Part shown: in pieces, positions 8,448 to 25,595 of the stretch
Numbering within the stretch: position 1 is the first letter of the stretch
Layout: each line of letters opens with the position of its first letter
Assembly: GCA_963753125.1 (NCBI GenBank)
Contig: CAVWAU010000006.1
Span: forward strand, 77,413 to 141,412
DNA length: 64,000 bases
DNA from: an uncultured Chloroflexia bacterium
Lineage (GTDB): Bacteria > Chloroflexota > Limnocylindria > QHBO01
Reading direction: 5' to 3'
Notes under the pieces: generated by a model
The model's database searches: none
What the model was told of the DNA's origin: nothing
What the model saw: the letters and a program-made list of their open reading frames with translations, nothing else
Translations under genes and position numbers: made by a program

Positions 8448-9908
8448 CTAGAAGAGGCTGGCGGCGCTGACCTCGAGGAGGCGCAGGATGGCGCCGGGGA
8501 AGACCCCCAGCGCGATCACGCCCGCCACGGAGACGGCGAGGGCCACCGAGCCGAATGGATGGTTGTCGAGGGGCGCGGGCTCCGGCTCGGGATCGCGCAT
8601 GTACATGTAGACGATGACGCGCAGGTAGTAGAACGCGGCCAGCGCGGCGTTGAGGACGATCACCACCGCCAGCCAGACGAGGCCCGACTCGACCGTGGCG
8701 ATCAGGACGTAGAGCTTGGCGAAGAAGCCGACGGTCGGCGGGATGCCGGTCAGGCTCAGCATGAGCACCGCCATCGCCCCGGCGCGCCACGGCGCCCGCG
8801 AGGCGAGCCCGGCGAACGAGGCGAGGCCGCCGAAGCGGGTCGTGTCACGCTGGAGCATGGCCACCACCGCGAAGGCGGCGATGTTCATGACCGCGTAGCC
8901 GAGGACGTAGAAAAGGACCGACTGGATGCCCTGTGCCGCGGTCTCGGCGTCGGGCGCGGCCGCGTAGGCCGCCAGCCCGGCCATGATGTAGCCGGTGTGC
9001 GCGATGCTCGAGTAGGCGAGCATCCGCTTCACGTTGGTCTGGACGAGGGCCACGATGTTGCCGACCGTCATCGTCAGCACGGTCAGCACCAGGAAGATCG
9101 CCAGCCAGTCCGCTTTCAACGGGGCGAGGGCCTCGGCGAAGATCCGGATCAGAAGCGCGAAGGCGCCGATCTTCGGGCCGACCGACAGGAACCCGGTGAT
9201 CGGCGTCGGCGCGCCCTGGTAGGCGTCCGGGGTCCAGTAGTGGAACGGGACCGCCGCGATCTTGAAGGTGGCGCCGACGGTCAGGAAGCCTATGGCCACC
9301 AGGATGCCGGCGTTCATCTGCCCCTCGAGTGCCGCGGCGACGCCGTCGACGCTGGTCGTGCCGGTCAGCCCGTATATCCACGCCGCCCCGAACAGGAGGA
9401 TCGCGCTGGCGAACGAGCCGAGCAGGAAGTACTTCAGGCCGCCCTCGTTGCTGTACCGATCGGTCTTGTGGAGGCCGGTGAGCAGGTACGACGGCATCGT
9501 CATCAGCTCGAGGCCCAGGAACAGGGTGATGAAGTCGCTGCTCGAGGCGAGGACGCACATCCCGATCAGCGCGCTGATGAGGATCGTGTTGAACTCGCCG
9601 AGCGGGATGCGCCGCACGAGCAGGTAAGACGGCGCGAAGAGGGCGGAGAGGACACCGGTCACGATCGTCGCCCCCTTGATGAAGACCGACAGGTCGTCGA
9701 CGACGTAGTAGCCGTCGTAGATCGTCTCGTTCGTGCCCCACACCACGAAGCAGGCGACGCCGGCGATGAGCAGCCCGAACACCGTGAGCGGCGTGAGCAG
9801 CCACTTCGAGCGTCGCGGCAGGAAGAGGTCGACGGTGATGACCACCAACAGGAGGACCGTGAGGACCAGCTCCGGCAGCAGCGCTCCGAGGTCTTCCATC
9901 AGCTCCAT
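8448..9908 (-). CDS. nuoN: NADH-quinone oxidoreductase subunit N
   Basis: EGGLKYFLLG, FKIAAVPFHYWTPDAYQGAPTP, KRMLAYSSIAH, SLTGIPP. Confidence 0.97.
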   Translation of the reverse strand: MELMEDLGALLPELVLTVLLLVVITVDLFLPRRSKWLLTPLTVFGLLIAGVACFVVWGTNETIYDGYYVVDDLSVFIKGATIVTGVLSALFAPSYLLVRRIPLGEFNTILISALIGMCVLASSSDFITLFLGLELMTMPSYLLTGLHKTDRYSNEGGLKYFLLGSFASAILLFGAAWIYGLTGTTSVDGVAAALEGQMNAGILVAIGFLTVGATFKIAAVPFHYWTPDAYQGAPTPITGFLSVGPKIGAFALLIRIFAEALAPLKADWLAIFLVLTVLTMTVGNIVALVQTNVKRMLAYSSIAHTGYIMAGLAAYAAAPDAETAAQGIQSVLFYVLGYAVMNIAAFAVVAMLQRDTTRFGGLASFAGLASRAPWRAGAMAVLMLSLTGIPPTVGFFAKLYVLIATVESGLVWLAVVIVLNAALAAFYYLRVIVYMYMRDPEPEPAPLDNHPFGSVALAVSVAGVIALGVFPGAILRLLEVSAASLF

Positions 9909-9922
9909 CGGTCAGCCGCCCC

Positions 9923-11437
9923 TCACCACAGCGGCCCGAAGCCGGTCAGCCCGGCGCCGTTGACGGCCTCGACGATGCGGTCGACCGGCACCTCGATCAT
10001 CTCCAGCACCGGCCCCGGGTAGACCCCCAGCGCCACTACGAGCACGATGAGCGGCGAGAGCGACACCCACTCGCCGCGGCTCATGTCGCGCAGCGACGGC
10101 CAGAATCGGCGCATCCAGTCCGACGGCACCGTGAAGAAGGCGCGCTGGAACATCCACAGCATGTAGACCGCGCTGAGGATGACGGCGGTCATCGCCACGG
10201 CCGCCACCCAGCCGTTGTAGGCGAACGCGCCCAGCACGACCAGGAACTCACCGATGAACCCCGAGAGGCCGGGCAGCCCTATAGAGGCGAACGTGAAGAG
10301 GCCGAACATGGCGGCGTACGCAGGGACGCGCGCGTTGAGCCCGCCCATGTGCGCGATCTCGCGGTCGTGGGTCTGCTCGTAGATGATCCCGACCAGGAGG
10401 AACAGCGCCCCGGTCGTGATGCCGTGGCTGATCATCTGGAAGATCGCGCCCTGCAGGCCCTGCACGTTGAAGACGAAGGCGCCGAGCATCACGAAGCCCA
10501 TGTGACTGACGCTCGAGTAGGCGACCAGCTTCTTCATGTCCGGCTGCACCATCGCCACCAGCGCGCCGTAGATGATCGCGATGAGCGCCAGACCGATGAT
10601 GACCGGCGCGAACGTCGCCGACGCGTCGGGCAGCAGCGGTAGGTTATAGCGCAGGAACCCATAGCCGCCGAGCTTCAGAAGAACTCCCGCCAGGATGATC
10701 GAGCCGGCCGTTGGCGCCTCGACGTGGGCATCGGGCAGCCACGTGTGGAGCGGCCACATCGGCACCTTGATGGCGAACGCCAGGAAGAACGCGATGAAGG
10801 CGAGCGCCTGGAGCGTATCGGTGTAGGCGAAGCCTCTCAGTGCCTCGTAGCTGAACGTGAACTCGTTGCCGGCCGACGCGTACGCGATCGCCACCGCAAG
10901 GATCGCGACGAGCATCAGCAGCGAGCCGACCAGGGTGTAGATGACGAACTTCACCGTCGCATAGATGCGGGCCGGGCCGCCCCAGATGCCGATCATGAAG
11001 TACATCGGGAAGAGGCTGACTTCCCAGAAGACGTAGAACAGGAACAGGTCGAGGCTGACGAAGACGCCGAGCATGCCGACCATGAGCAGCAGCATCACGG
11101 CGTAGTAGGCCTTGATCTTGGTCTGGATCGGCTCCCAGCTGTAGACGATGGCCACCACGCTCAGCAGCGTGGTCAGGATCACGAGCACGACGCTGATGCC
11201 GTCGACGCCGAGCGTGTATCGCATCCCGAAGAAGTCGATCCACGGGAGGTCCTCGCGGAACTGGAACTCGGCGCCGCTCGGGTCGTAGCCGAGCAGCGCA
11301 AGGCTGAGCCCGAAGCTGATCAGCGCGGTGACGAGCGCGATCCAGCGGATGGCGGTGTGGGCGGTGCCCGGGACGAACAGCAGGAGGAGCGCGCCGAGCG
11401 CCGGCACGAAGACGATGGCGGAGAGGAGGGGCACCAC
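9923..11437 (-). CDS. nuoM: NADH-quinone oxidoreductase subunit M
   Basis: GTG 11437 overlaps the nuoL stop (TAGTG); FAIKVPMWPLHTWLPDAHVEAPT, LLKLGGYG, KKLVAYSSVSHMG. The ORF-track extension to 13258 is a shadow. Confidence 0.97.
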   Translation of the reverse strand: MVPLLSAIVFVPALGALLLLFVPGTAHTAIRWIALVTALISFGLSLALLGYDPSGAEFQFREDLPWIDFFGMRYTLGVDGISVVLVILTTLLSVVAIVYSWEPIQTKIKAYYAVMLLLMVGMLGVFVSLDLFLFYVFWEVSLFPMYFMIGIWGGPARIYATVKFVIYTLVGSLLMLVAILAVAIAYASAGNEFTFSYEALRGFAYTDTLQALAFIAFFLAFAIKVPMWPLHTWLPDAHVEAPTAGSIILAGVLLKLGGYGFLRYNLPLLPDASATFAPVIIGLALIAIIYGALVAMVQPDMKKLVAYSSVSHMGFVMLGAFVFNVQGLQGAIFQMISHGITTGALFLLVGIIYEQTHDREIAHMGGLNARVPAYAAMFGLFTFASIGLPGLSGFIGEFLVVLGAFAYNGWVAAVAMTAVILSAVYMLWMFQRAFFTVPSDWMRRFWPSLRDMSRGEWVSLSPLIVLVVALGVYPGPVLEMIEVPVDRIVEAVNGAGLTGFGPLW

Positions 11438-13638
11438 TAGCGCACCACCGTCGCGTACACGAGCAGCACGATCGCCAGCCCAGCGGCGATCCCCAGGCCG
11501 TAGTTCTCGACGTGCCCGGTCTGCACCTTGCGCAACCCGCCGCCGATCGTTCGCGCCAGCCAGCCGGTGCCGTTGACGATGCCGTCGATGACCCGAACGT
11601 CGAACCACCACAGTGCGTTCGCGACGATCACGCCGCCACGGGCGAAGACGAGCTGGTAGACGTCGTCGATGTAGTACTTGTTCAGGCTGGCGCGGTACAT
11701 CCCCGGCCCGAGACCCAGCGGGAAGCGCTCGATGAAGCGCGCCGGCAGCCCTGGTTCGCGAACGTAGAACCGATGTGCGAGCCAGACGCCGGCGACGGCC
11801 ACGAGCGCGCCCGCGGTGAGCAGCACCCCGCCGCTTCCGAGGAGCTGGAACTCGGGGTGATCGCCGTCGGCGATCGACCCGGGCAGGACGCCGGCATGCG
11901 CCTCCTCGGCGACGAGGAAGACCTCGTGGAGCCATTCGTGGATGAGCCCGGCCTCCGGCGGGATGCCGAGCAGCAGACCGATGAAGATCGTCGGCACGGC
12001 GAGGATGGCCAGCGGCGCGACCATGGTCGGGGCGCTCTCGTGGACGTGGTCCCACACCGCGCGCGGCCCGCGCCACTCGCCCCAGAAGGTCATGAAGATC
12101 ATCCGGAACGTGTAGAAGGCGGTCATCAGCGCGACGACCACGCCGACGATGTAGAAGACGAGATAGCCGCGGTTGAAGGCCTCGGCCAGGATCTCGTCCT
12201 TGCTGAAGAAGCCGGAGAAGATCGGGATGCCGGCGAGGGCCAGCGAGCCGATGACCATCGTGACGTAGGTCCAGCGCATCCGCGCGCGCAGGTTGCCCAT
12301 GTAGCGCATGTCCTGCTCGCCTCCGGCGCCGTGGATCACGGAGCCGGAGCCCATGAACAGCAGCCCCTTGAAGAAGCCATGGCTGACGAGGTGGAAGATC
12401 GCCGATGCGAACGCCCCGATCCCGAGCGCCATGAACATGTACGCCAGCTGGCTGACCGTCGAGTAGGCGAGGACCTTCTTGATGTCGTTCTGGGTCAGCG
12501 CGATGGCCGCGGCGAGGACGGCGGTGAAGGTGCCGATGATGGCGACCACCAACATGGCGGTGGGCGCCTCGGCGAAGATCGGGTTGGCGCGGGCGACCAT
12601 GTAGACGCCGGCGTTGACCATCGTGGCGGCGTGGATCAGCGCCGATACAGGGGTCGGGCCCTCCATGGCGTCCGGAAGCCAGACGTGGAGCGGGAACTGG
12701 GCGGACTTGCCGACGGCGCCGGCGAAGAGGAGGAGGGCGATGATCGTGACGGTGCCCTCGTCGAGCGTGCCGATCCGCTCGAAGACCTCGTGGAAGCTCA
12801 GCGTCCCGAGGTTGACCCAGATCATCATGATCCCGAGGCCGAACCCGAAGTCGCCGATCCGGTTGACGACGAAGGCCTTCTTGGCCGCCCCGGCCGCCGA
12901 GGGCTTCTTGTACCAGAAGCCGATGAGCGCGTAGCTGCACAGGCCGACCGCCTCCCAGCCGACGTACAGCATCAGGAAGTTGTCGCCCAGGATCAGCAGC
13001 AGCATGCTGAACATGAACAGGTTCAGGTAGGCGAAGAAGCGCCACAAGCCCCGGTCGCCGTCCATGTAGCCGATCGAGTAGACGTGGACGAGGAAGCCGA
13101 CCGTGCTGACGACGAGCAGCAGCATCGCGGTCAGCGAGTCCACCAGGAAGCTGACCTCGATGTTGAACGAGCCAGAGGCGATCCACTCGTAGACGGTCAC
13201 CTCGTGCTCGTTGCCGCCGAAGACAACGTCGGCGAAGACGACCATCGAGATGACCCACGTCAGGCCGACGAGCACGGTCGGGACGATCCAGGACCGATAG
13301 CGCGGCCGCTCCGCGCCCGGCGAAACGTGCCCGGCCTGGCCGAGCCCGTCGTTCAGCTCCGCCGGGATGACGCCGGCAGCGCCCTCGGCGTTGGAGAGGT
13401 CGTCGGAGTGGCCGGCATGCGGGCTCGTCGCGGCCTGCTCCTCCTCGGTCGGGACGGTGCGGAAGGCCGAGTCGTCGACCGGGCCGTGGCCGTGGGCGTC
13501 ATCGGTCTCGTGCTCTGCATCGTGGTCTTCGTGGCCGTGAACGGGGACGCGGTCGAGCCGCGGGCCGACGAGGACGGCGAAGAGGAACCCGATCAGGGGC
13601 AGCGCCGGGATGAGGGCGATCAGGAGGTCGATGGACAT
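11437..13638 (-). CDS. nuoL: NADH-quinone oxidoreductase subunit L with a long His/acidic insert after TM1
   Basis: GKSAQFPLHVWLPDAMEGPTPVSALIHAATMV, KKVLAYSTVSQL, HGFFKGLLF, SKDEIL. Confidence 0.97.
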   Translation of the reverse strand: MSIDLLIALIPALPLIGFLFAVLVGPRLDRVPVHGHEDHDAEHETDDAHGHGPVDDSAFRTVPTEEEQAATSPHAGHSDDLSNAEGAAGVIPAELNDGLGQAGHVSPGAERPRYRSWIVPTVLVGLTWVISMVVFADVVFGGNEHEVTVYEWIASGSFNIEVSFLVDSLTAMLLLVVSTVGFLVHVYSIGYMDGDRGLWRFFAYLNLFMFSMLLLILGDNFLMLYVGWEAVGLCSYALIGFWYKKPSAAGAAKKAFVVNRIGDFGFGLGIMMIWVNLGTLSFHEVFERIGTLDEGTVTIIALLLFAGAVGKSAQFPLHVWLPDAMEGPTPVSALIHAATMVNAGVYMVARANPIFAEAPTAMLVVAIIGTFTAVLAAAIALTQNDIKKVLAYSTVSQLAYMFMALGIGAFASAIFHLVSHGFFKGLLFMGSGSVIHGAGGEQDMRYMGNLRARMRWTYVTMVIGSLALAGIPIFSGFFSKDEILAEAFNRGYLVFYIVGVVVALMTAFYTFRMIFMTFWGEWRGPRAVWDHVHESAPTMVAPLAILAVPTIFIGLLLGIPPEAGLIHEWLHEVFLVAEEAHAGVLPGSIADGDHPEFQLLGSGGVLLTAGALVAVAGVWLAHRFYVREPGLPARFIERFPLGLGPGMYRASLNKYYIDDVYQLVFARGGVIVANALWWFDVRVIDGIVNGTGWLARTIGGGLRKVQTGHVENYGLGIAAGLAIVLLVYATVVR

Positions 13639-13645
13639 TCGGCCT

Positions 13646-13954
13646 CTATTCCTTCAGGTCGGCGTACTGGTCGACCTCGGCCGTCTGCCGGGTGCGGATG
13701 ATGGCGATGACCAGCGCCAGGCCGACCGTCACCTCGGCGGCGGCGACCGCCATGATCATCAGCGCGAAGACCGCGCCGGCGTTCGCGTCGCTCGGCGGCA
13801 GGTAGGCGTTGAACGCCACCAGGCTCAGGTTCACGGCGTTGAACATGAGCTCGATGCTGATGAGCATCAGGATCGCGTTGCGCCGCGCCATGAAGCCGAA
13901 CGCGCCGATCGCGAACAGCAGCGTCGAGACGATCAGGTAGCCCTCGAGGCCCAT
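13646..13954 (-). CDS. nuoK: NADH-quinone oxidoreductase subunit K
   Basis: RRNAILMLISIELMFNAVNL...VAAAEVTVGLAL. Confidence 0.97.
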   Translation of the reverse strand: MGLEGYLIVSTLLFAIGAFGFMARRNAILMLISIELMFNAVNLSLVAFNAYLPPSDANAGAVFALMIMAVAAAEVTVGLALVIAIIRTRQTAEVDQYADLKE

Positions 13955-13957
13955 CGG

Positions 13958-14467
13958 TCAGTTCGCCCGCTCGTCTTCTTCCGGCCGGCGGGCCAGGTAG
14001 ATGGCACCGATGATCGCCACCAGCAGCAGCAGGCTGATGATCTCGAACGGCAGCGCGAACTCGGTGAAGATGGCGGTGGCGATGTCCTCGACCGCAGCGG
14101 AGGCCGCCTGGGCGGCGGCGGGCCAATCGGTCTGGATGACGGCCCAGCCGACGAGACCGATGATGGCCAGCGAGATGACCGCGGCGATCGGCACCTGCCG
14201 ATGGAACGGCGCCGGCAGGTTCGCGTCACCGGCCTGGGTGAGCATGATCGCGAAGAGGATCAGGACGCTGATCGCGCCGAGGTAGATCAGCACCTGCGCG
14301 GCGGCCACGATCGGCGCGCCGAGCAGCGCATACATGCCGGCGAGCGACCCGAAACAGACCATCATCGCCACGGCCGAGTGGATGATGTTGCGCAGCGTGA
14401 CGACGGCGAGTCCGGCTCCCACGACACCGATGGCGAGCAGGAAGAAGAGGACGCTGGAGATGTCCAG
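13958..14467 (-). CDS. nuoJ: NADH-quinone oxidoreductase subunit J (probable CTG start)
   Basis: NIIHSA, QVLIYLGAISVLILFAIML, F.LPFEIISLLLLVAIIGA; TM1 needs the CTG at 14467 (SD GGGAG 9 nt upstream). Confidence 0.93.
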   Translation of the reverse strand: MDISSVLFFLLAIGVVGAGLAVVTLRNIIHSAVAMMVCFGSLAGMYALLGAPIVAAAQVLIYLGAISVLILFAIMLTQAGDANLPAPFHRQVPIAAVISLAIIGLVGWAVIQTDWPAAAQAASAAVEDIATAIFTEFALPFEIISLLLLVAIIGAIYLARRPEEDERAN

Positions 14468-14530: not shown

Positions 14531-14600
14531 GCGTAGCGATCATTGAGGCTGCGGTGCCAGCACGGATGAAGGTTTCCGTGCGCTCGATTGTCATGTCATC

Positions 14601-15168
14601 GTGACGCAGCGAGCTGAGGTGGATGCCGTGCCGGGTGCGGAGGTGCTGAGCGCCGGGGAATCGAGTCCTCGTGCGATCGCCTTCGTGGAGCTCGCCGAAC
14701 GTCACCTGGACGCGAGCTATCGCCTGGCGCGAGCCATCCTGCACGATCCCGCTGATGCGGAGGACGCCACCCATGACGCAGTCGTCACGGCGTGGCGACA
14801 GTTCTCGACCCTGCGCGACGTTGCGCACTTCGAGGGCTGGTTCCACCGCATCCTCGTGAACACCTGCCGCAACCGGTTGGCCCGCGCCGGGCGCTGGCAC
14901 ACCCAGGACCAGCCGCCCGACTGGGCAGGCCGCGGGTGACGCGTTCGGGCAGGCCGATGACCGGGACCTCATCGGGGCCGCGCTGCGGCAGCTCACTCCA
15001 GACCACCGGGTCGTGGTCGCACTGCGGTTCTATCGAGATCTGAGCGTGGACCAGATCGCCCGGCAGCTGGGGGTTCGTCCGGGCACCGTCCACTCCCGCC
15101 TGCACTATGCGATGAAGCGGCTGGCGGCGTTGATCGACGCGGCCGATGCCAAGAGGACACTCCGATGA
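14601..15168 (+). CDS. ECF sigma factor; apparent +1 frameshift near 14925
   Basis: Region 2 (DAEDATHDAVVTAWR...FEGWFHRILVNTCRN) in 14601-14939; region 4 (LRQLTPDHRVVVALRFYRDLSVDQIARQLGVRPGTVHSRLHYA) in the next frame, ending TGA 15168. Confidence 0.85.
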
Positions 15169-16124
15169 TTGATGACGATCTCGAGCGCCGACTGCGGGCG
15201 TGGTACCAGGCCGAGATCGGCACCCGGGAGGCGGCTCCGGCATCGCTGTATGCCAGCCTGGCGGAGATCGCTGACACGGCGCCGGCACCGGCACGGCCGC
15301 ATCGCCAATCGGCGCGGCTTCGTTCTTGCTGGTGGCCGCAGCACTCGTCCTGTCGCTGCTGGTCGGCGGCGCCATTGCCATCGGCTCCGGGCTGTTGACG
15401 TTGCCCTGGGCGGTCGACGAGGCGCCTCGCGCCGTCGATGCCCTGACTTGGACCCCATCGAGCCTCGAGCAGGACTGGCCGGTGCCAATTCGCGCCGAGC
15501 CGGTCGGATGACGTGGTCGTCGTGCCGCTCGTCGACGCCGAACGCGGCGAATACATAGATCCCAGTGGAGACATCGGACCGACCGGGCCTCTTTGGCTCG
15601 ACATCGAGCACGTGCGCCTCTCGGGAGGCCAACCGGCCATCACCCGACACGGGGTGATCTGGTCTGTCGACGTCGAGCTCGCCGCCGAGATGCCGTCGCG
15701 ACGGGATCTCCGCGAGGAGTATCTCGGCGCCGATATCCCGTCGCGGGTGGCTGATCCCCGCGAGGAATGGATCGCGTACGGACTCGTCCTGGACACCAAC
15801 GCCGACGGTGTGCCCGACGTGAGGATCGGGATGGACAACATGCCCGAACCGGGCCACCGCGCGTGGCGCACGGAGCTCGACACCGGTCGAACCATGTCGG
15901 CTGCCGGGGCGCCATACGGCCTCGTTGGTGATCGCTATGTGGACACGTTCTTCCCGGGCGAGACATCGAGCAATGTCCCGGAGTTCAGCGTGGGCTTGCG
16001 CGAGGGGGAGCCAGCGTTCCGCTTCTACGTGTGGGCATCGCTGATCGAGGACGGCCGGGTCGTGGCGACGGATTACGCCCCCGATATCGGCTGGCTGGAG
16101 CCGGCGCCCGGGGCGGACCAGTGA
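15165..16124 (+). pseudogene. putative anti-sigma/single-TM protein, broken by about 3 frameshifts (decay or sequence error)
   Basis: ATGA-coupled to the sigma gene; MIDDDLERRLRAWY N-terminus, RRGFVL/LVAAALVLSLLVGG TM and extracellular domain lie in three frames. Confidence 0.55.
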
Positions 16125-16903
16125 ACCCGCGGATCGGCCATGAGTCAGCCGCGCGGAGACGGCTGCGGTCAATGCCCCTGGGTGCGACAATTCACGCGGC
16201 GGTGGCGCTGATTCTGGTCGCCGGCTGCGCCAGCGTCGCCCCGACGTCCGCCTCGCCGAGCGGCCCGACGAGTTCGGCCTCGAACGCACCACGCTCCACG
16301 CCTGGTGCCGCCGCTGGCGCTCGTCACCTCCCCGGCAGCGGCCCGATTGAGCCTGGCACGGTACTTCATCGCCGAAGGGCCCGTGGACGCCGGCGACCTT
16401 CTCGTTCACGATGCCCGCCGGCTGGGTCGCGGAGAACGGGGGCAGACGATCTCGAAGCATGCGAACGAATCGGGTCGCGAGGTCGGCTGGAGCGTGTCGA
16501 TCGTCGATCGGCTCTTCGCCGACCCGTGCGGCCCGAACGAGACGATCGACATCGGGCCGACCGCCGACGACCTCGCGGCCGCGCTGCGCGCATTGCCGGG
16601 CCCGGACGTAGCGGCGCCAATGGAGGTCACGATCGGCGGGCGATCCTGGAAGGTCATCGAGGTGACTGTCTCGGCCGACGTCGACGTCGAGCAGTGCGAC
16701 CCGCCGATCGGGCTCCAGATCTGGCTCGACCGAAGCGGCAACAAGTACTTCCTGCGCGGGCCATGAATCCGTGGCGCGGGTCTACACCGTCGATGTCGAC
16801 GGGCGCCCGCTTCGTCGTGGTGGCGAACCATCGCTCAACGTCGGCGCCCGAGGACGTCGCCGAGATGGAGGAGATCCTCGCCTCGATCGAGTTCGAGCCA
16901 TAA
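16121..16903 (+). pseudogene. lipoprotein (LVAGC lipobox), broken by about 5 frameshifts
   Basis: Coherent protein stitched across frames: EPGT/YFIAEGP/WTPATFSFTMPAGWVAENG/QTISKH...KYFLRG/HESVARVYTVDVDG/ARFVVV...ASIEFEP. Confidence 0.55.
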
Positions 16904-16976: not shown

Positions 16977-19368
16977 CTAGCGGGTGGGTCGCTCCCGGTC
17001 GGACATCTCGAGGATGTCGAGCATGGGCAGGTCGCGCTGGTACTCGCTGAACTCGAACTCGGGGCCGCAGCGCAGGGCGTCGTACGGGCAGGCATCGGCG
17101 CAGATGCCGCAGAAGATGCAGCGCGACACGTCGAGCTGGTAGGTCTCGAGGATGCGCGGGCGCGGCATGAGTGCGCCGACCGGGCATGTCTCGGCGCATC
17201 GGCCACAGGAGACGCACGGCGTCTCGTTGAGGGAGACGAAGTCGGCGGTGGTGACGAGGGAGTCGAAGCCCTTGCCGATGAAGTCGTAGCAGCCGGCGCC
17301 GACGATGTCCTTGCAGACCTGGGCGCATCGGCCGCAGTCGATGCAGCGCGAGTAGTCGCGCAGGATGAACGAGTGCGTCTCGTCGCGGCCGTAGCCGTGG
17401 TTGACGCCGACGTACGGGTTGTCCTGGATCGAGCGCTCGTCGATCGCCATGTTCAGCGTCGTCTCGTACTCGATCGCCGCCTCGCGCAGGTCGCAGTGGC
17501 CGATCGCCTCGCACGTGCACTGCAGGCAGCGTGACGCCTCGGCCATGGCCTGGTCGCCGGTGTAGCCGAACTCGTACTCGTTGAAGTTCGTGCTGCGCTC
17601 CTCGGGGCCGAGCTTGCCCATGATCGCCTTGGGCTCCTTCACGTCATCGGTGAAGGGGACGATGGTCAGGAAGTTCGGCTGCGGCTCGGTGACGATGCGC
17701 CGGACCTGCGGGTCGTCGAGGTCGTGGCCGCGCAGCCAGTAATCCATGGCGTACGAGGCGCGGCGGCCCTCGCCGATGGCCTCGACCACGGTGGCGGCAC
17801 CGGTCCGGACGTCGCCGGAGGCGAAGACCTTGGGGACGTCGGTGCGGAAGATGTGCTCCTCCGACTCGAGCGTGCCGCGCCGCGAGACGACGAGCTTCGA
17901 GCGGATCTCCTCCGGCTCCGAGTCGATCCACGACAGCTCCGGTCCCTGGCCGATGGCGCCCAGCACGGTGTCGCACTCGACGATGAACTCGGTGCCCTCC
18001 ATCGGCTCCGGCCGGCGGCGGCCCTGCTCGTCGGGCGCGCCGAGCTTCATGCGCTGGAACTCGACGCCGGTGACCTTGTCCTTCTCGTCGGTGACGATCC
18101 GGACCGGGGCGGCCTGGAAGATGAGCCGCGCGCCCTCCTCGATGGCCTCGTGCGCCTCGTCGGCGGCGGGCATGTCCTTGAGGTCGCGGCGGTAGACGAG
18201 GGTCACCTCGGCCGCGCCCTGGCGCACCGAGGTCCGGGTGCAGTCGATGGCGGTGAAGCCGCCACCGATGACGACCACCCGCGCGCCCTTCAGCCGCGGC
18301 ACCGGGATGCCGCGGGTCGAGTTGTAGAGGTTCTCGAGCGCGTTGACGGTGCCCTGGGCGAACTCGCCGGGGATGCCGAGCTCGTTGGGCTTGTAGCAGC
18401 CGATGCCGATGTAGATCGCGTCGTAGTCGTCGATGATGTCGCCGATGTGGAAGTCGCGCCCGAGCCGCATGTTCGGCTTGAAGGTCGCGCCGAGCTCCCA
18501 GACGTGGTTGAGCTCGCGGTCCATCCAGCCCTTCGGCAGGCGGTACTGCGGGATGCCGTAGCGCAGCATGCCGCCCTGCTCGGGATCGGCCTCGAAGACG
18601 TCGCACTGGTGGCCGCGCAGCTGGAGGTAGTACGCGACGCTCATCCCGGCCGGGCCGGCACCGATGATCGCCACGCGGCGACCGGTCGGCGGCTCCTTCG
18701 GCCACGGGATCGGCGCCGGGGCATCCACCTCCAGGACGCGGTCGGCGCAGTACCGATGCGAGTCGCGGATGGCGATCGCGGTGTCGACCTCCTCGCGCCG
18801 GCAGTGGGTCTCGCACGGCGCGGGGCAGACGCGGCCGAGGATGGCCGGGAACGGCAGCGAGCGCTTCAGGATGCGCGTCGCCTCCTCCCAGTTGCCGAGG
18901 GTGTTCTGCTTCAGGTAGCCGGGGATGTCGACCCGGGTCGGGCACTTGAACTGGCACGGCGGCAGGCAGTAGGCGTCGTGGTCGCTGAAGATGAGCTCGA
19001 GGACCATGCGCCGGTTCTCGATGACGCGGTCGGAGTGGGTGGTGATGACCATCCCCTCTTCGATCGTCGTCCCGCACGAGATCGGGGTGTCGTCGCGCCC
19101 CTCGACCTCGACGGCGCAGATGCGGCACGCCCCGTACGGCGCCAGCTTCGGCTCGTAGCACAGCGTCGGGATCTCGATGCCGAGCACCCGGCAGGCCTGG
19201 AGGATGGTCTGTCCCTCCTCGGCCTCGACCTGCTGCCCGTTGATCGTGACCGTGATCTTCTGCGTGCCGGGCACCATCGGCCAGATCGGCGTGTAGTCGG
19301 TGACCTGCCCGTCGCCGCGTGCCGTTGCCGTTGCCGGTCGGGTGGCCGTTCGTCGTGCCGAAGCTCAT
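16977..19368 (-). CDS. NuoG-like [2Fe-2S]/[4Fe-4S] protein with inserted GltD/NfnB-type FAD/NADPH domain and C-terminal NuoI half (StnC-like::NuoI-C)
   Basis: C-x10-C-x2-C-x13-C, HDAYCLPPCQFKCP, GRVCPAPCETHC, GAGPAG, GGGFTA..YRR, SGD, EASRCLQCTC..C, two CxxCxxC motifs, then CIFCGICADACP. Unbroken ORF 16977-19277; the real start is probably ATG 19368 with a +1 frameshift near 19318. Confidence 0.88.
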
Positions 19369-19374
19369 CGGTCC

Positions 19375-20740
19375 CTACTCTAGCCCGGCCGGCTCGAGGC
19401 CGGGCAGCGGCTCCCGGAGCGGTGGCACCTCGGCGACGCGACAGGCGCCGGCCAGGCAGACGCCACGCTCCGCATGGGCGCGGTACTCGTCGGGGAAGCG
19501 CTCCATGGTGGTGAGGATCGGGTTCGGCGCCAGGCTCTCGAGCTTGCAGAGTGCGGTGTCGCTCATCTTGCTCGACAGCTCGCGCAGCATGACGAAGTCG
19601 TTCGGACGCGGGGTGGCGGCCAGGATGCGGTCGAGCGCCTCCACCAGCCGCTTCGTGCCGATGCGGCACGGCACGGCCTTGCCGCAGGCCTCTCTTGCGC
19701 TGAAGTCGACGAAGAAGCGCGCCGAGTCGACCATGCACGTAGCGGCATCGGTGACCAGGACCGATCCGGAGCCGATGATCGCGCCGGCCTTCTCGAGCGG
19801 CTCGTAGTCGTAGGCCAGGGTGAGCCGGCCGACGTCGATGGCGCCACCGCCGGGGCCGCCGACGAAGACCGCCTTCGTCGAGCCGGTCCCGCCGCCGGCC
19901 ATGCCGACGAGGTCGAGCAGGCTCGTGCCCAGCGGCACCTCGAGCAGCCCGGGCTCCATCACGCGGCCCATGACCGTCACGAGCTTCGTGCCCTTGCTCG
20001 CGTCGCTCCCAACCGAGGCGAACGCCTCCGGGGAGTGCGAGATGATCCAGGCCACGTGCGCCAGGGTCTCCGCGTTCTGGACGACCGTCGGTGCGCCCCA
20101 CAGGCCGGTCGTGGCCGGGTACGGCGGCCGGATCGCCGGCATGCCGCGATCGCCGGCCAGCGCGTGCAGCAGCGCGGTCTCCTCGCCGGCGACGTAGGCG
20201 CCGGAGCCCTCCCATACGCGACAGCTGGATGCTGGTGTCGGTGCCGAGCACCAGGTAGCCGGCCAGGTGCGCCTCGGTCGTCTCGCCGACCGCGGTTCGC
20301 AGCCGGTCGATGGCGTCGGTCCACTCGCGGCGCACGGCGACGATTGCCTCGCTCGCGCCCACCGCGTACGCCGCGATGAGGAGGCCCTCGAGGACGAGGT
20401 GCGGGTTGCCCTCGGCCAGCGCCCGGTCGCCGAGGGAGCTGGGATCGGCGCCCATGAGGTTGGCGACGACGATCCTGCGGTCGGTTTCGATGCCGCGTGC
20501 GACGCGCCACTTCTCGGCGGTCGGGAAGCCGGAGCCGCCGCGGCCGCGCAGGCCGGCTGCCTCGATCTCGTCGATCACGCCCTCCGGCGAGAGATGGGTG
20601 ACGGCGCGCTTCAGGCCGCCGTAGCCGCCATGCTCGCGGTAGCTGGCCAGGCTGCTCGGGTCGATCCGCCCGATGTCGGTCAGCACCCGGCGCTCGCCGG
20701 CGCCGAGGATGCGGATCTGGGGCGAGATCGTGCCGGCCAT
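19375..20740 (-). CDS. nuoF: NuoF/HydB-like flavoprotein subunit, degenerate; apparent +1 frameshift near 20220
   Basis: GLRGRGGSGFPTAEKW, GSGAYVAGEETAL, RPPYP, QNAETLA, IGSGSVLV, EACGKAVPCRIG, ALCKL; halves are in the 18911-20740 and 19375-20142 frames. Confidence 0.88.
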
Positions 20741-21582
20741 CAGCTGCGGGTGCTCGCCGTGGCGCGTGTCGCGGCGGCAACCCGCTCGCTGACGATGTGG
20801 CGAGCCTTGGCGGCATCGACCGGCCCGTAGACGAGGGTGTCGACGCGAATGGCCGGGCTGATCGCGCCCGCCCCGACGTCAGTCGCCAGCTCCAGGCTCC
20901 ACTGACCGTCGGGCGTCTCCTCGCCTGCGCGGATGCCGAGCTCCTCCTCGATGGCGGCGCGCACCGCCGGCCCGCCGGCGAAGCGGCACGCGGCGCAGTC
21001 GCAGACGGTGACGACGTGGCCGGCGGCGGGCAGAAGGCGGAAGCCGCCGAGGCCGGCGGCGCCGAAGACCTGCGCCCAGTGGATGCTCATCCGGTCGCTC
21101 ACCCGGCGCAGCGCGCGCTCGGGCAGGTAGCCGTATCGGTCCTCGATGGCCCGGAAGATGGCGACCAGCGCCTCCGGACGGCCGCCGAAGGCGTCGATCG
21201 TCTCGTCCACCCACGGCGTGTCGATCGCCTCGTCCCAGCGCGCCGGGTTGCGCATCGGTCTCGCCGGCTGGCCGGCGCGGCGGTATGCGTTGGCGTCCTT
21301 GCGCTCGTCGTAGATCTCCGGCATCCCGTAGCGGATCCGGTTGCCCCGCGAGTCGAAGCCGCTCATGTCGATGGCCTCGACCGGGCAGACCTGCGCGCAC
21401 TGGAAGCAGACCTCGCACTTGTGCTCGCCGAACGGGTCGTAGATGAGGTCGAGCCGGCCGCGCCATCGGTCGGGGATCGGCGGGCGCTCCTCGGGATACT
21501 GCCGCGTCACCTTCGGCGCGAAGAAGTTGCGGAAGGTGGTGACCATGCCCTTGGCGATGCCGACGCCCGGAAACGCCATCAA
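20740..21582 (-). CDS. fusion of NuoI N-terminal half and NuoE-like domain
   Basis: GMVTTFRNFFAPKVTRQYPEE...RWRGRL...CEVCFQCAQVCPVEAI (NuoI-N, one motif only), then RYGYLPERALRRVS...VCDCAAC...LGIRAGEETPDGQWSLE (NuoE). Confidence 0.88.
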   Translation of the reverse strand: MMAFPGVGIAKGMVTTFRNFFAPKVTRQYPEERPPIPDRWRGRLDLIYDPFGEHKCEVCFQCAQVCPVEAIDMSGFDSRGNRIRYGMPEIYDERKDANAYRRAGQPARPMRNPARWDEAIDTPWVDETIDAFGGRPEALVAIFRAIEDRYGYLPERALRRVSDRMSIHWAQVFGAAGLGGFRLLPAAGHVVTVCDCAACRFAGGPAVRAAIEEELGIRAGEETPDGQWSLELATDVGAGAISPAIRVDTLVYGPVDAAKARHIVSERVAAATRATASTRS

Positions 21583-21592
21583 TGCACCCCGC

Positions 21593-22603
21593 TCACAGGT
21601 CGAAGACCACCACCGCGATGGCGGTGAGGAACAGGTTCACCAGCGCCAGCGGCAGGAGCACCTTCCAGGCCAAGCCCATGAGCTGGTCGACACGGACCCG
21701 CGGCAGCGTGCCGCGCAGCCAGACCGCGATGGCCACGAAAATGTAGGTCTTCAGGAAGAACCAGAAGATCCCGTACACCGTCCCCGCGAAACCGCCGAGC
21801 TGGGCGGGCAGCGGCCACGGCGCCAGCCAGCCGCCGAAGAAGAGCGTGATGAGGATGCCGCTCATGATGAACAGCGCGACGTACTCGGCGAAGAAGAAGA
21901 ACCCGAAGCGCATCCCCGAGTACTCGGTGAAGGGCCCCGCCACCAGCTCCGAGTCGGCCTCGACCATGTCGAACGGAGTGCGGTTGACCTCGGCCAGGCT
22001 GGCGACGTAGAAGATGGCGAGGCCGACCGGCTGCCACCACAGCAACCAGCCGTTCTCGAGCTGCCAGGCGATGAGCTCGCTGAAGCTGAGCGTGCCGGCC
22101 AGCACCACCGCGCCCACGATTGAGAGGGTGAGCGGGATCTCGTAGCTCACCATCTGCGCCGCTGATCGCAGGCCACCCAGGAGCGAGTACTTGTTGTAGC
22201 TCGCCCAGCCGGCCACCAGCAGCCCGACCACCGAGAGGCCGAGCACGGCGAAGAAGTAGACGATGCCGATGTTGAAGTCCGCAGCGATCGCGCCGGGCGC
22301 GAAGGGGATCACGATCATGCTCATCGCGGCGGCCATGTAGACCATCCACGGGGCGAGCGTGAATGTGCCGCGATCGGCCTGGTCGGGAACGGTGTCCTCC
22401 TTGGCCAGCACCTTGAAGCCGTGGATCGTGCTCTGGAACATCCCGCGCGGGCCGATCCGGTTCGGCCCGTAGCGCAGCGCCAGCTGCGCGATGATCTTCA
22501 TCTCCATCTGGATGATGACGAACGCGGTCGGCACGGTGAGCAGCAAGATCAGGGTCGTGGCCAGGACGAAGCGGCCGAGGCCGAGCAGCAGCTCCCAGTC
22601 CAT
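21593..22603 (-). CDS. nuoH: NADH-quinone oxidoreductase subunit H
   Basis: RYGPNRIGPRG, KYSLLGGLRSAAQMVSYE, AEVNRTPFDMVEADSEL, LPRVRVDQLM..WK. Confidence 0.97.
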   Translation of the reverse strand: MDWELLLGLGRFVLATTLILLLTVPTAFVIIQMEMKIIAQLALRYGPNRIGPRGMFQSTIHGFKVLAKEDTVPDQADRGTFTLAPWMVYMAAAMSMIVIPFAPGAIAADFNIGIVYFFAVLGLSVVGLLVAGWASYNKYSLLGGLRSAAQMVSYEIPLTLSIVGAVVLAGTLSFSELIAWQLENGWLLWWQPVGLAIFYVASLAEVNRTPFDMVEADSELVAGPFTEYSGMRFGFFFFAEYVALFIMSGILITLFFGGWLAPWPLPAQLGGFAGTVYGIFWFFLKTYIFVAIAVWLRGTLPRVRVDQLMGLAWKVLLPLALVNLFLTAIAVVVFDL

Positions 22604-22606
22604 CGG

Positions 22607-23890
22607 TTACTTGTCCACGCCGCCCATGACCGGGTCGAAGCTGGCCATGACCGCCATGAGGTCGGCGATGAGGCGGCGCGGCATGATCTTCGGCAGCGCC
22701 TGAAGGCTGATGAACGAGGGGTCGCGCATCCGGAACCGATACGGGTTCGGCCCGCCGTCGCTGATGGCGTAGATGCTGTAGAGGCCGCGCGGCGACTCGA
22801 CCGCCGCGTAGGCCCGCCCCGGCTTCGGCCGGATGATGCCGGGCACCTGGGCCTGCACCGGCCCGTGCGGCATCTTGTCCATGATCTGGTCGATGAGGTG
22901 GATGCTCTGCTTGATCTCGGCGATGCGCTGGAGATACCGCGCGTACGAGTCGCCTGATTCCTGGGTGATCACGTCGAACTCGAGCTCGTCGTAGATCGAG
23001 TACGGACGCGCCTTGCGCACGTCGAAGGGCACGCCAGATGCGCGCAGGTTCGGGCCGGTCACGCCGAGGCTGATGGCCTGGTCTCCGGTCAGCACGCCCA
23101 TCCCCTTCGTTCGAGCCGTGAAGATCTCGTTCTCGGTGATCATCCACTCGTTCATCTCGATGTTCTTCAGCACCCCGCTTCGCCACGTGCCGAGGCGGCT
23201 GAGGAACTCGTCGTTGACGTCCCAGTTCACGCCGCCGACGCGGAAGAAGTTGAAGAGCATGCGCTGGCCGCTGATGGCCGACAGCATCTCGACGATCTCG
23301 TCGCGGTTGATGAAGCTGTACAGGATCGGAGTCAGCCCGCCCATGTCGAGCGCCAGGAAGCCCATCATCAGGCTGTGGCTGAAGACGCGGTTCAGCTCGA
23401 CGACCAGCGCCCGGATGTACTCGGCCCGCTCCGGGGCCCTGATGCCATACAGCTTCTCGAAGGCGATCGCCGGCGCGTGCTCGTTGTGCATGGTGGCGAG
23501 GTAGTCCATGGGGTCGACGTACGTGAGCACGGTCGTGTAGGTCGCGTTCTCGCACAGCTTCTCGATCCCGCGGTGGAGATAGCCGAGGACGGGGTCGACC
23601 TCGATGATCACCTCGCCGCGGACCTTCACCACCAGACGCATGACGCCATGGGTCGAGGGATGCTGCGGGCCGAGGTTGAGCAGCATCTCGCCTTCGTCGA
23701 GGCTATAGACCTCGCGCTCGCGGTCGGTCTGCGGCGGCCGGTCGGGGATGCCGACCTGCTCGAACCCGGCGAATTCGGCCGACTCTCGGTGGACCGGCCG
23801 CAGCCCGGCGACGGCCCGCAGGCGGTCCTCCTCGGCGCGGTCGAGATCGATGGGGTCCGGGATGCGGACCTCGGGGTCGACCTTCGTCAT
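22607..23890 (-). CDS. nuoD: NADH-quinone oxidoreductase subunit D
   Basis: NLGPQHPSTHGVMRL, GYLHRGIEK, TGPNLRASG, GDSYARY, ESPRG, DPVMGGVDK. Confidence 0.97.
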   Translation of the reverse strand: MTKVDPEVRIPDPIDLDRAEEDRLRAVAGLRPVHRESAEFAGFEQVGIPDRPPQTDREREVYSLDEGEMLLNLGPQHPSTHGVMRLVVKVRGEVIIEVDPVLGYLHRGIEKLCENATYTTVLTYVDPMDYLATMHNEHAPAIAFEKLYGIRAPERAEYIRALVVELNRVFSHSLMMGFLALDMGGLTPILYSFINRDEIVEMLSAISGQRMLFNFFRVGGVNWDVNDEFLSRLGTWRSGVLKNIEMNEWMITENEIFTARTKGMGVLTGDQAISLGVTGPNLRASGVPFDVRKARPYSIYDELEFDVITQESGDSYARYLQRIAEIKQSIHLIDQIMDKMPHGPVQAQVPGIIRPKPGRAYAAVESPRGLYSIYAISDGGPNPYRFRMRDPSFISLQALPKIMPRRLIADLMAVMASFDPVMGGVDK

Positions 23891-24513
23891 CGCGGGCGGC
23901 TCTTGTCGGCGTCGGTCTCGCCGGCCTCGACGGTGGCGGGGTGCTGTTCGGCGGGAACGCCCACCGCAGGGGCGTCACGGAAGCGGGTCAGGTCCCACGT
24001 CTCGGGGCGCTCGAGCGGGTTCACGCCGTGGGCCGACGAGTCGGCGGCGTCGTCGGGCAGGATGAAGTCCCTGCGCTGCGGGAAGGACCGATAGTCGGGC
24101 GACATGTAGATCCGGCGCAGGTCGCGGTTGCCCTCGAAGACGATGCCCATCATGTCGTACATCTCGCGCTCGTGGAACATCGCGCCCTCCCACATGTGGG
24201 TGATGGTGCGGATGCGCGGGTCGGCGCGATCGACGCGGGCGCGGACGCGGAGCCAGGCCGGGTGCTTCCAGCTGAAGAGGTGGTAGACGACCTCGAAGTG
24301 CGCGTCGACGCCGTAGTCGACGGCGGCCTCGTCGGCGAGCATGAAGAATGCGAGGTCCTCGTCGTCGCGCAGCGTCGTCAGCACCTCGACGTTGGTTGCG
24401 CCGTCGATGGTGAACTCGACCGTGTCCTCGTCGGTCCACAGGTCGCGCAGGTCGGCGGACAGGCGCTCGTTGAGAAGCCTCACGAGCGCCCCCGCGGCCA
24501 CAGGCGTGGTCAG
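23887..24513 (-). CDS. nuoC: NADH-quinone oxidoreductase subunit C (probable CTG start; alternative GTG 24501)
   Basis: [29 protein letters not shown]...FPQRRDF; SD GGAG 7 nt before the CTG, which overlaps the nuoB TGA. Confidence 0.93.
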
Positions 24514-25178
24514 CGGACGTCTCCTTCCCAGCGCATGCGCTGCGGACCGCGATCGACGAAGGTGGGCCACTGGCCGCGGCGTTCCTTGACCAGCTCGTGG
24601 AGCTTCATCATCCCGTAGATGAGGCCCTCGGGGCGCGGCGGGCAGCCGGGAACGTAGACGTCGACGGGCATGACGCGGTCGACGCCCTGCACCACCGAGT
24701 AGGAGCGCTTGAACCGGCCGCCGGAGGTGGTGCAGGTGCCCATCGCCACGCACCACTTCGGCTCGGGCATCTGCTCCCAGAGGCGCACGAGCGGCCCGGC
24801 CATCTTCGTGGTCAGCGTCCCGGCGACGATCAGCACATCGGCCTGTCGTGGCGAGGCACGGAACGGGAACATCCCGAATCGGTCGATGTCGTTGACGCTG
24901 GTGGCGGTCGACATCATCTCGATCGCGCAGCAGCTCAGGCCGGACAGGAGCGGCCACAGCGAGTTGGCGCGGATGAGGTCGAGGACGTAGTCGGCCTTGG
25001 TCGGGATCACCTCGAGCAGGCCGTGGAAGCCGCCCTGTGGGTGCTCCTCCATGCCGAACTCGCGGAGGAGGGCGTCCTCGGCCCCGGCGTCCGGAATGAT
25101 GATCGGGCCGTCGCCGTCATCGGTCTTGGCCAGCTCTGTGCTGGTGGTGGTGGGGTCGTTCGGTCGGTCTACTGCCAT
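24510..25178 (-). CDS. nuoB: NADH-quinone oxidoreductase subunit B
   Basis: [39 protein letters not shown] (N2 ligands intact). Confidence 0.97.
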
Positions 25179-25528
25179 CGCAGGTCACCCTTCTTCCACG
25201 CGTAGAACTCGCCGAACATGAGGATCGCAAGGAAGATGCCGATGAGCACGATCCCCTGGAACTCCAGCGCCCGCACGGTGATGGCCCACAGGTAGACGAA
25301 GATGATCTCCACGTCGAAGGCCACGAACAGCAGGGCGTACAGGTAGAAGGCCAGCCCGAAGCGGCTCCACGTGTCACCGATGGTGTCCACGCCCGACTCG
25401 TACGGCAGGCCCTTCTGGGGGCGACGCCGCCGATGGGTGATCAGCCAGCTGAACAGGATCGTGCCGAAGACGAAGGTCGTCGCCGCGAACCCGAAGCCGA
25501 TGACGTAGAGCAGTCCGGTGTGATCCAT
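25169..25528 (-). CDS. nuoA: NADH-quinone oxidoreductase subunit A
   Basis: [29 protein letters not shown]; SD GGAG before ATG 25528. Confidence 0.96.
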
Positions 25529-25595
25529 TTCCACTCCGGTACCACGCGCGGTATCCACGCGGGCCACGCCGGCCCGCCGATTGGTTCAGTCTCGT

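Follow-up and report, generated by a model that had tools for sequence, protein, structure and literature searches.

StnABC and NfnABC are electron-bifurcating transhydrogenases of the Bfu type (PDB 9bov, 8oh5, 9n5u; PMC10482914, PMC12018979). Their bifurcating site is composed of flavin mononucleotide (FMN), the [4Fe-4S] cluster B1 and the [2Fe-2S] cluster C1, and ferredoxin binds between BfuB's C-terminal domain and that of BfuC (PMC12018979). The use of NADPH has been measured for both StnC and NfnA (PMC10482914, PMC12018979). In StnC of Sporomusa ovata, the cluster proximal to the flavin adenine dinucleotide (FAD) is ligated by K170, a lysine present in all soluble StnC/NfnA proteins, and a side branch towards the FdhF-like domain has been described as a non-functional remnant (PMC10482914). 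Here we analyse a gene of this family that is located inside a complex I (nuo) operon. It lies at 16977-19368 on the minus strand of a 64,000-nucleotide stretch (the window; positions 77,413 to 141,412 of contig CAVWAU010000006.1) from an uncultured soil bacterium (Chloroflexia) of the Limnocylindria. As judged from the comparisons below, the StnC-like gene and its NuoE-like and NuoF-like neighbours form a module derived from soluble transhydrogenases of the Nfn-Bfu (StnABC) family. The StnC-like protein is probably the large subunit of this module, which would serve as the electron input of a membrane-bound NADPH:quinone complex I.

The StnC-like protein was compared with solved structures by sequence and by fold. 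Residue numbers are those of the 766 amino acids (aa) of its uninterrupted open reading frame (ORF), P0001, and domains are from Pfam. Residues 8-730 align colinearly to residues 4-699 of the solved NfnA/StnC proteins, with expect (E) values of 1e-166 for NfnA of Caldicellulosiruptor saccharolyticus (9bov_A, 1178 aa), 1e-146 for StnC of S. ovata (8oh5_C, 1172 aa) and 9e-140 for NfnA of Thermococcus sibiricus (9n5u_A). The same three proteins were the top matches of a Foldseek search with a model of P0001, at 35-38% identity in the fold alignment. The StnC-like identity, proposed earlier in a sequence-only reading of this DNA, is thereby upheld. Stand-alone NfnB and GltD match residues 105-517 only, with E values of 1e-87 to 1e-68 (for NfnB 4ylf_B, E 9e-87 and a template modelling score of 0.80 on the target). 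The protein carries the hallmarks of a GltD/NfnB/SudA domain, namely GxGxxG, GGMLRYGIPxYRL, GGGxxAxD with YRR after it, a GD motif and sites for two [4Fe-4S] clusters. Its placement with NfnA/StnC follows from the E values, which are 1e-166 to 1e-140 for these proteins and 1e-87 at best for NfnB and GltD.

With NfnA/StnC the protein shares the N-terminal [2Fe-2S] domain, the His-ligated cluster, the ferredoxin-like 2x[4Fe-4S] domain and a GltD-like FAD/NADPH domain at the same insertion site with the same displaced Fe-S segment; its partners are likewise of the NuoE-like and NuoF-like type. An N-terminal [2Fe-2S] motif, a GltD-type block within the NuoG His/Cys motif and an 'EA.RCL.C' segment behind the flavoprotein domain had been noticed in the sequence-only reading, and each was recovered with Pfam. 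Fer2_4 is found at residues 6-82. The NuoG His motif PF10588 is represented by its profile positions 1-17 only (residues 89-105) and gives way to positions 29-110 of Fer4_20, the GltD/DPD helical Fe-S domain (residues 105-183), and then to Pyr_redox_2. Positions 1-37 of Fer4_20 follow at residues 561-596. The circular permutation was rejected as a novelty of this gene, as it is common to StnC and NfnA. The alignment is column for column, and both the permutation and the GltD insertion are therefore traits of the whole StnC/NfnA family. The NuoG equivalog model TIGR01973 scored 99.8 bits on the StnC-like protein against a cut-off of 470, and only its positions 1-95 matched.

The key residues of GAGPAG, GGGFTA, YRR and SGD are invariant in 38 homologues, and all FAD, NADPH and cluster motifs of the subunit are kept in every clade. 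In an AlphaFold model of P0001 built on the 38-sequence alignment, the flavoprotein domain has a predicted local distance difference test score (pLDDT) of 75-95. Because the GGGxxAxD...YRR region is identical to that of StnC/NfnA, the GltD-like domain is predicted to be specific for NADPH.

The C-terminal end differs from that of NfnA/StnC. The FdhF-like C-domain, full in StnC (about 480 residues) and partial in T. sibiricus NfnA, is absent here, and the alignment stops at about residue 700 of those proteins, in keeping with the earlier remark that the large molybdopterin-like domain is missing. P0001 ends 36 residues past the end of this alignment, and its C-terminus is the second half of NuoI. 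Where two further 4Fe-4S motifs had been counted before, three CxxCxxCxxxC(P) motifs follow the flavoprotein domain, two of them in the ferredoxin-like domain and the third in the NuoI half; beyond the ferredoxin-like domain, Pfam recognises a 4Fe-4S motif up to residue 736.

NuoI was traced with the NCBIfam model TIGR01971, which has 121 positions. Positions 71-112 match residues 708-749 of the StnC-like protein (E 3e-15), and positions 1-72 match residues 12-84 of a NuoE-like fusion protein encoded at 20740-21582 (E 7e-16). The two halves together make up positions 1-112 of the model. NuoI is split between its two CxxCxxCxxxCP motifs, so that the StnC-like protein does not carry both on a single polypeptide, and no intact nuoI was found in the nuo operon. 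With the NuoI-NuoE fusion written as I'E and the StnC-NuoI fusion as StnC-I'', the gene order is nuoA-B-C-D-H-[I'E]-[F]-[StnC-I'']-(insert)-J-K-L-M-N. The layout is that of an 11-subunit operon with a three-gene E/F/G cassette inside nuoI, rather than that of a 14-gene operon in which nuoG has been swapped. The earlier statement that NuoG is replaced is supported by the absence of a canonical NuoG from the family of the window, and is better put as the presence of an Nfn-Bfu-type cassette inside nuoI of an A-B-C-D-H-I-J-K-L-M-N order. All members of that respiratory core are present with N2 ligands and quinone-site residues, NuoI being represented by its halves.

In a 2x[4Fe-4S] ferredoxin fold, each cluster is held by three cysteines of one motif and the fourth of the other. 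Since each cluster needs cysteines of both halves, the two fusion proteins would have to pair for N6a and N6b to form. The NuoI halves are covalently part of the StnC-like and NuoE-like proteins, and for this reason a soluble complex appears very unlikely.

Further differences from NfnA/StnC concern cluster ligands and partners. The Lys ligand (K170 in S. ovata, K165 in T. sibiricus) is His174 here. This His is invariant in all 38 complex-I-linked homologues, and the Lys is kept in the soluble-type Chloroflexota relatives L089 and L090. C114 is replaced by Ile. The partner subunits are without the B1 Cys, the C1 cluster, the StnB N-terminal domain and the StnB C-terminal ferredoxin domain; both the flavobicluster (FMN, B1 and C1) and the ferredoxin site of a bona fide bifurcating Nfn-Bfu enzyme are thus incomplete. 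The genes lie within the nuo operon, whereas those of NfnA/StnC stand alone. Coordinates of the genes and of the parts of the StnC-like protein are collected in the table.

Table. Genes of the nuo locus and segments of the StnC-like protein (window coordinates; residues of P0001).
Feature	Coordinates	Strand	Remarks
StnC-like large subunit with C-terminal half of NuoI	16977..19368	-	796 aa with tail; clean ORF of 766 aa from ATG 19277
[2Fe-2S] domain, Fer2_4, residues 6-82, N1b-type	19032..19262	-	Pfam; C40, C51, C54, C68 invariant
His100/Cys start of NuoG N5-type motif, then GltD helical Fe-S domain (Fer4_20 profile 29-110)	18729..19013	-	Pfam
FAD and NADPH Rossmann domains, Pyr_redox_2, residues 201-504	17766..18677	-	GAGPAG, GGMLRYGIPxYRL, GGGFTAxD, YRR, SGD
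Displaced first GltD Fe-S segment, Fer4_20 profile 1-37, residues 561-596, EASRCLQCTCEAIGHC ('EASRCLQC')	17490..17597	-	
Ferredoxin-like 2x[4Fe-4S] domain, Nqo3-type, residues 638-703	17169..17366	-	Both CxxCxxCxxxC motifs complete
Second half of NuoI, residues 708-749, TIGR01971 positions 71-112, RCIFCGICADACPYDAL	17031..17156	-	
NuoF/StnB-like subunit	19375..20740	-	N3 motif CGKAVPC, NADH loop ANLMGADPS; StnB N-/C-terminal Fe-S domains absent; frame broken
NuoI first half fused to NuoE-like domain	20740..21582	-	Second [2Fe-2S] Cys pair lost (DVGAG)
nuoH	21593..22603	-	
nuoD	22607..23890	-	Quinone-site His and Tyr present
nuoC	23887..24500	-	
nuoB	24510..25178	-	N2 ligands CC...C...CPP present
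nuoA	25169..25567	-	
Membrane-arm genes	8448..14422	-	nuoJ 13958-14422, nuoK 13646-13954, nuoL 11437-13638, nuoM 9923-11440, nuoN 8448-9908

Spurious ORFs are abundant in the window, which has about 70% G+C, and the real genes were therefore chosen by third-position G+C. The span given to the StnC-like gene in the sequence-only reading is correct: the ATG at 19368 opens MSFGTTNGHPTGNGNG (MSFGTTNGH...), which is the N-terminus of a near-identical database protein of 796 aa (P0003). The uninterrupted ORF of this assembly runs over 16977-19277. A single surplus base near 19318 (GGCACGCGGC, where AGC is expected from P0003) shifts the frame of the N-terminal tail, and the length of the span, 2392 nt or 797 codons and one base, agrees with a one-base insertion. 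The tail is rich in Gly and Asn and varies in length between relatives.

The NuoF-like partner was characterised through an intact orthologue (from L004). It matched StnB/NfnB with E values of 1e-122 to 1e-116, as against 1e-80 or weaker for NuoF of complex I. The alignment covers StnB residues 107-524, with the Zn-site Cys and His retained; in this alignment the NuoF-like protein has neither the N-terminal domain of StnB nor the 2x[4Fe-4S] ferredoxin domain at the StnB C-terminus. All 65 Limnocylindria NuoF-like sequences have another residue for the second Cys of the B1/N3 motif (CGK[A/T]xPC). The NADH/FMN loop CNADEGDPG reads ANLMGADPS, ANGFEADPG or CNAYDADxRS in three clades, and the position of the FMN-stacking aromatic residue (Tyr) varies even between close relatives. 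In the NuoE-like domain, the second Cys pair is lost in Limnocylindria, and the whole thioredoxin-like domain is gone in Ktedonobacteria-type sequences.

Selection on the module was gauged by rough Nei-Gojobori estimates of the ratio of nonsynonymous to synonymous substitution rates (dN/dS) within the clade of the window. Values were 0.146 for StnC-I'', 0.147 for NuoB, 0.24 for NuoD, 0.26 for I'E and 0.31 for the NuoF-like subunit. All five genes are maintained; the NADPH subunit is the most constrained and the NuoF-like subunit only weakly so, its dN being about threefold that of the StnC-like protein (0.23 vs 0.07). In canonical complex I the relation between the rates of NuoF and NuoG is the opposite. 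The decay of the NuoF-like and NuoE-like cofactor sites, with which the selection pattern agrees, favours the FAD site as the real or only electron entry point, and we infer such a role for it from these sequence features.

These results suggest the following path of electrons. I'E and StnC-I'' would pair on NuoB, NuoD and NuoH and so anchor the module to the membrane complex. NADPH would donate hydride to FAD in the GltD-like domain, from which electrons would pass to the pair of GltD-type [4Fe-4S] clusters, where His174 substitutes for the StnC Lys at the first one, then to the NuoG-type His-ligated cluster and the ferredoxin-like clusters. From there they would reach the reassembled NuoI clusters, N2 in NuoB and finally quinone, driving proton pumping. 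The branch towards the FdhF-like domain, a dead end in soluble StnC, would then be the likely way out for electrons, since the fusion point of NuoI'' coincides exactly with the start of that domain. The NuoF-like and NuoE-like subunits would be kept mainly as scaffold, with the bifurcation (FMN, B1 and C1) and ferredoxin sites dismantled.

The distribution of the gene was determined by a scan of a genome collection. Relatives of the StnC-like protein occur in at least 581 species genomes, and the 80 best matches are almost all from Limnocylindria or Chloroflexota. The same synteny was seen at all 11 loci inspected (59-96% identity). In a sample of 401 genomes of the phylum, the gene, covered through its NuoI half, is present in every listed relative at the level of genus, family and class; canonical NuoG exceeds the model cut-off in 2 of the 61 genomes of the class and in none of the family of the window. 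A single nuoD locus was found in each of six genomes of relatives, one of them a complete 2.1-Mb chromosome, and three of these six have a single NuoF-like gene. PntB was found in seven of the eight Limnocylindria genomes searched and was missing only from the bin of the window itself, which is 62% complete with 3% contamination. A match of the NDH-2 type lies above the cut-off in five of the eight. As NADH thus has other routes in these genomes, a complex I fed by NADPH alone is physiologically possible. A homologue search with the NuoI'-NuoE fusion as query yielded close Limnocylindria relatives only and added nothing on its wider distribution.

In other Chloroflexota the fused StnC-NuoI'' protein occurs at 46-50% identity, as in Thermogemmatispora carboxidivorans. 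Ktedonobacter, Dictyobacter and Tengunoibacter supply the named homologues, whose sole annotation is 'FAD-dependent oxidoreductase'. T. carboxidivorans has a four-gene cluster nuoB-[I'E]-F-[StnC-I''], a separate nuoA-C-D-H cluster without exactly B and I, and a canonical nuo operon at another site. The first two gene sets complement each other, which speaks, as independent genomic evidence, for a module assembled on the core of a complex I, and the coexistence with a canonical complex I hints at different substrates. A Ktedonobacteria-type genome (G036) carries two tandem StnC-NuoI'' genes after one NuoF-like gene (L091, 7566-12395). One copy has YYR in place of YRR at the NADPH 2'-phosphate motif and, on the strength of this motif, may be a paralogue with altered nucleotide preference.

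Two other loci of the same bin were recorded. Contig C2 (45700-61230) holds a second copy of the nuo cluster at about 90% identity, with amino-acid identities of about 75-95% and many frameshifts, which probably represents a lower-coverage second strain co-binned in this metagenome-assembled genome (MAG). Another Fe-S flavoprotein of the GltD-like kind is encoded on contig C5 (29862-31688) and shares 31% identity with P0001 over residues 104-716 of the latter.

The genes at 14547-16900, which separate nuoJ from the StnC-like gene, are on the plus strand. They comprise an extracytoplasmic function (ECF) sigma factor (regions 2 and 4 at 14547-14939 and 14860-15168, respectively), a probable anti-sigma factor and two proteins without a Pfam match. 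The length of this spacer in relatives lies between about 150 bp and about 3.5 kb; the nuo genes therefore form two transcription units at a variable distance. NuoD matches Pfam Complex1_49kDa in two pieces (profile 1-174 and 198-271). Ktedonobacteria have this gap in their second NuoD and not in the canonical one, and it may mark this lineage of complex I. NuoL has 733 aa, with Proton_antipo_N beginning at residue 152 and alignments to the 60% clade beginning at residues 110-152, which points to an N-terminal extension.

A number of observations weigh against NADPH as the sole donor. The NuoF-like protein keeps its Gly-rich loop GRGG(A/S)G(F/Y)P and the GEET motif, besides the Zn-site residues, and it is under purifying selection (dN/dS 0.31), as is I'E (0.26). 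The N1b-type [2Fe-2S] cysteines leading to NuoF are invariant in the 38 homologues. A CxxAxxC...C site could hold a [3Fe-4S] cluster and serve as a three-Cys relay, and the full CGKCVPC is kept outside Limnocylindria, in Ktedonobacteria; it was seen in six NuoF-like sequences of other Chloroflexota lineages, one of them named Thermogemmatispora. The pLDDT of the P0001 model, below 35 for residues 532-766, is a further weak point of the proposed path. All but the last would suit an enzyme with two inputs, in which NADH is oxidised at FMN bound by the NuoF-like subunit and NADPH at the GltD-like domain, and in which both feed quinone or the head equilibrates NADH and NADPH. Such an enzyme is considered rather unlikely here, given that the FMN/NADH-contact residues of NuoF/StnB are replaced, and differently in each clade, that the NuoE-like subunit has lost its cluster or the whole domain, and that the NuoF-like dN exceeds that of the StnC-like protein, opposite to canonical complex I. 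The separate canonical NADH complex I of Ktedonobacteria also suggests different substrates for the two enzymes. The same architecture might instead work mainly in reverse, with the proton-motive force driving electrons from quinol to NADP+ for biosynthetic NADPH, for example during oxidation of H2 or CO. Complex I is reversible, as are the Stn/Nfn enzymes (PMC10482914); Thermogemmatispora strain T81, which differs from the strain searched here, scavenges H2 and CO (PMC6776052); and Ktedonobacteria hold the StnC-type complex beside a canonical one. In Limnocylindria, however, it is the only complex I, and PntAB offers a route to NADPH in seven of the eight genomes searched. The sequence fixes no direction, and a mainly reversed mode is thought improbable.

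A soluble Stn-like transhydrogenase merely placed in the nuo operon, or a cluster of decaying pseudogenes, would accord with the solubility of the nearest solved relatives and with the broken frames of the window. Besides the shifted tail of the StnC-like gene, a 1-nt insertion at about 20217-20221 ('TCGCGTA', where relatives have 'AGCGTC') puts the NuoF-like gene (19375-20740, minus strand) in two frames, and this too counts against a working complex. The extra base is absent in the four relatives compared, and the NuoF-like frame is continuous in all 11 relatives inspected. The unrelated ECF sigma-factor gene is also frameshifted, its regions 2 and 4 being in different frames. Because the close relatives derive from long-read MAG projects and show frameshifts in their other genes, the three single-base insertions (StnC-like tail, NuoF-like and ECF sigma) are probably assembly errors. 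The pseudogene explanation was rejected, as the genes of the relatives are intact and under purifying selection (dN/dS 0.15-0.31). A soluble enzyme is opposed by the covalent inclusion of both NuoI halves in the module, by an operon without intact nuoI, and by the loss of the tetramerising FdhF-like domain of StnC and of the StnB ferredoxin domain; taken together, a soluble or decaying module is given hardly any credence. A membrane-bound NADPH:quinone complex I is the reading preferred here.

Complex I is, in textbook terms, specific for NADH. The module resembles the canonical N-module (NuoE-NuoF-NuoG, as in E. coli; Nqo2/1/3 of Thermus) in its subunit folds, in its position at the tip of the peripheral arm, in its N1b-, N4- and N5-type cluster motifs and in feeding NuoI, NuoB (N2) and quinone in turn. 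It differs in the absence of the molybdopterin-like domain, in the extra FAD/NADPH domain and two more clusters, in the splitting of NuoI and its fusion to the module, and in the degenerate NADH/FMN site; its genes follow nuoH, whereas the canonical E/F/G genes follow nuoD. We know of no Nfn-Bfu-derived head, no NADPH/FAD GltD domain and no head attached by splitting of NuoI in Fpo, cyanobacterial NDH-1 or Campylobacter Nuo. These systems are alike in combining an 11-subunit core with a donor-specific head, for F420H2 (Fpo with FpoF), ferredoxin and flavodoxin, respectively (general knowledge; PMC3144371, PMC4453560). According to Degli Esposti (2015, PMC4758237), a flavoprotein related to GltD occupies the NuoI position in the Mbx-like operons of some proteobacteria and of Thermotoga, and there, too, a GltD-type NAD(P)H flavoprotein goes with a complex-I-like membrane complex. 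By that paper's description those complexes are of the Mrp/Mbx type and ferredoxin-linked, with NuoI substituted, whereas here NuoI is kept in split form, parts like NuoG, NuoE and NuoF are present and the Nuo core has a quinone site. In a full-text literature search, neither a split NuoI nor a complex I bearing an Stn/Nfn module was found to be described; Spero et al. 2015 and Degli Esposti 2015 came nearest.

The complex is best called a complex I with an Nfn-Bfu-derived head. In the fuller proposal, which is put forward with no more than half confidence, the 11-subunit complex I gained a nucleotide-oxidising head a second, independent time. An NfnABC/StnABC cassette would have entered nuoI, bifurcation would have decayed and the StnC branch would have become a wire. 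Such an enzyme would pump protons as an NADPH:menaquinone oxidoreductase and would serve Limnocylindria as their sole complex I and Ktedonobacteria as a second one, specialised in its substrate. Cultured, non-pathogenic bacteria offer a way to test this, since Thermogemmatispora, Ktedonobacter, Dictyobacter and Tengunoibacter carry the StnC-NuoI'' protein. The system would also show how a 2x[4Fe-4S] ferredoxin fold, divided in nature between two polypeptides, can be used as a docking device, and how a bifurcating enzyme family can be reduced to a simple dehydrogenase.

Many Chloroflexi have been reported to hold 13 of the 14 nuo genes, 'missing only NuoG', and were scored as lacking complex I (Spero et al. 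2015, PMC4453560). The present architecture explains this remark, and genome surveys that scored these Chloroflexota as without complex I over a missing nuoG would need correction. If the proposed function is true, an NADPH:quinone pump would change the models of redox balance and energy yield for a very abundant lineage of soil and freshwater bacteria.

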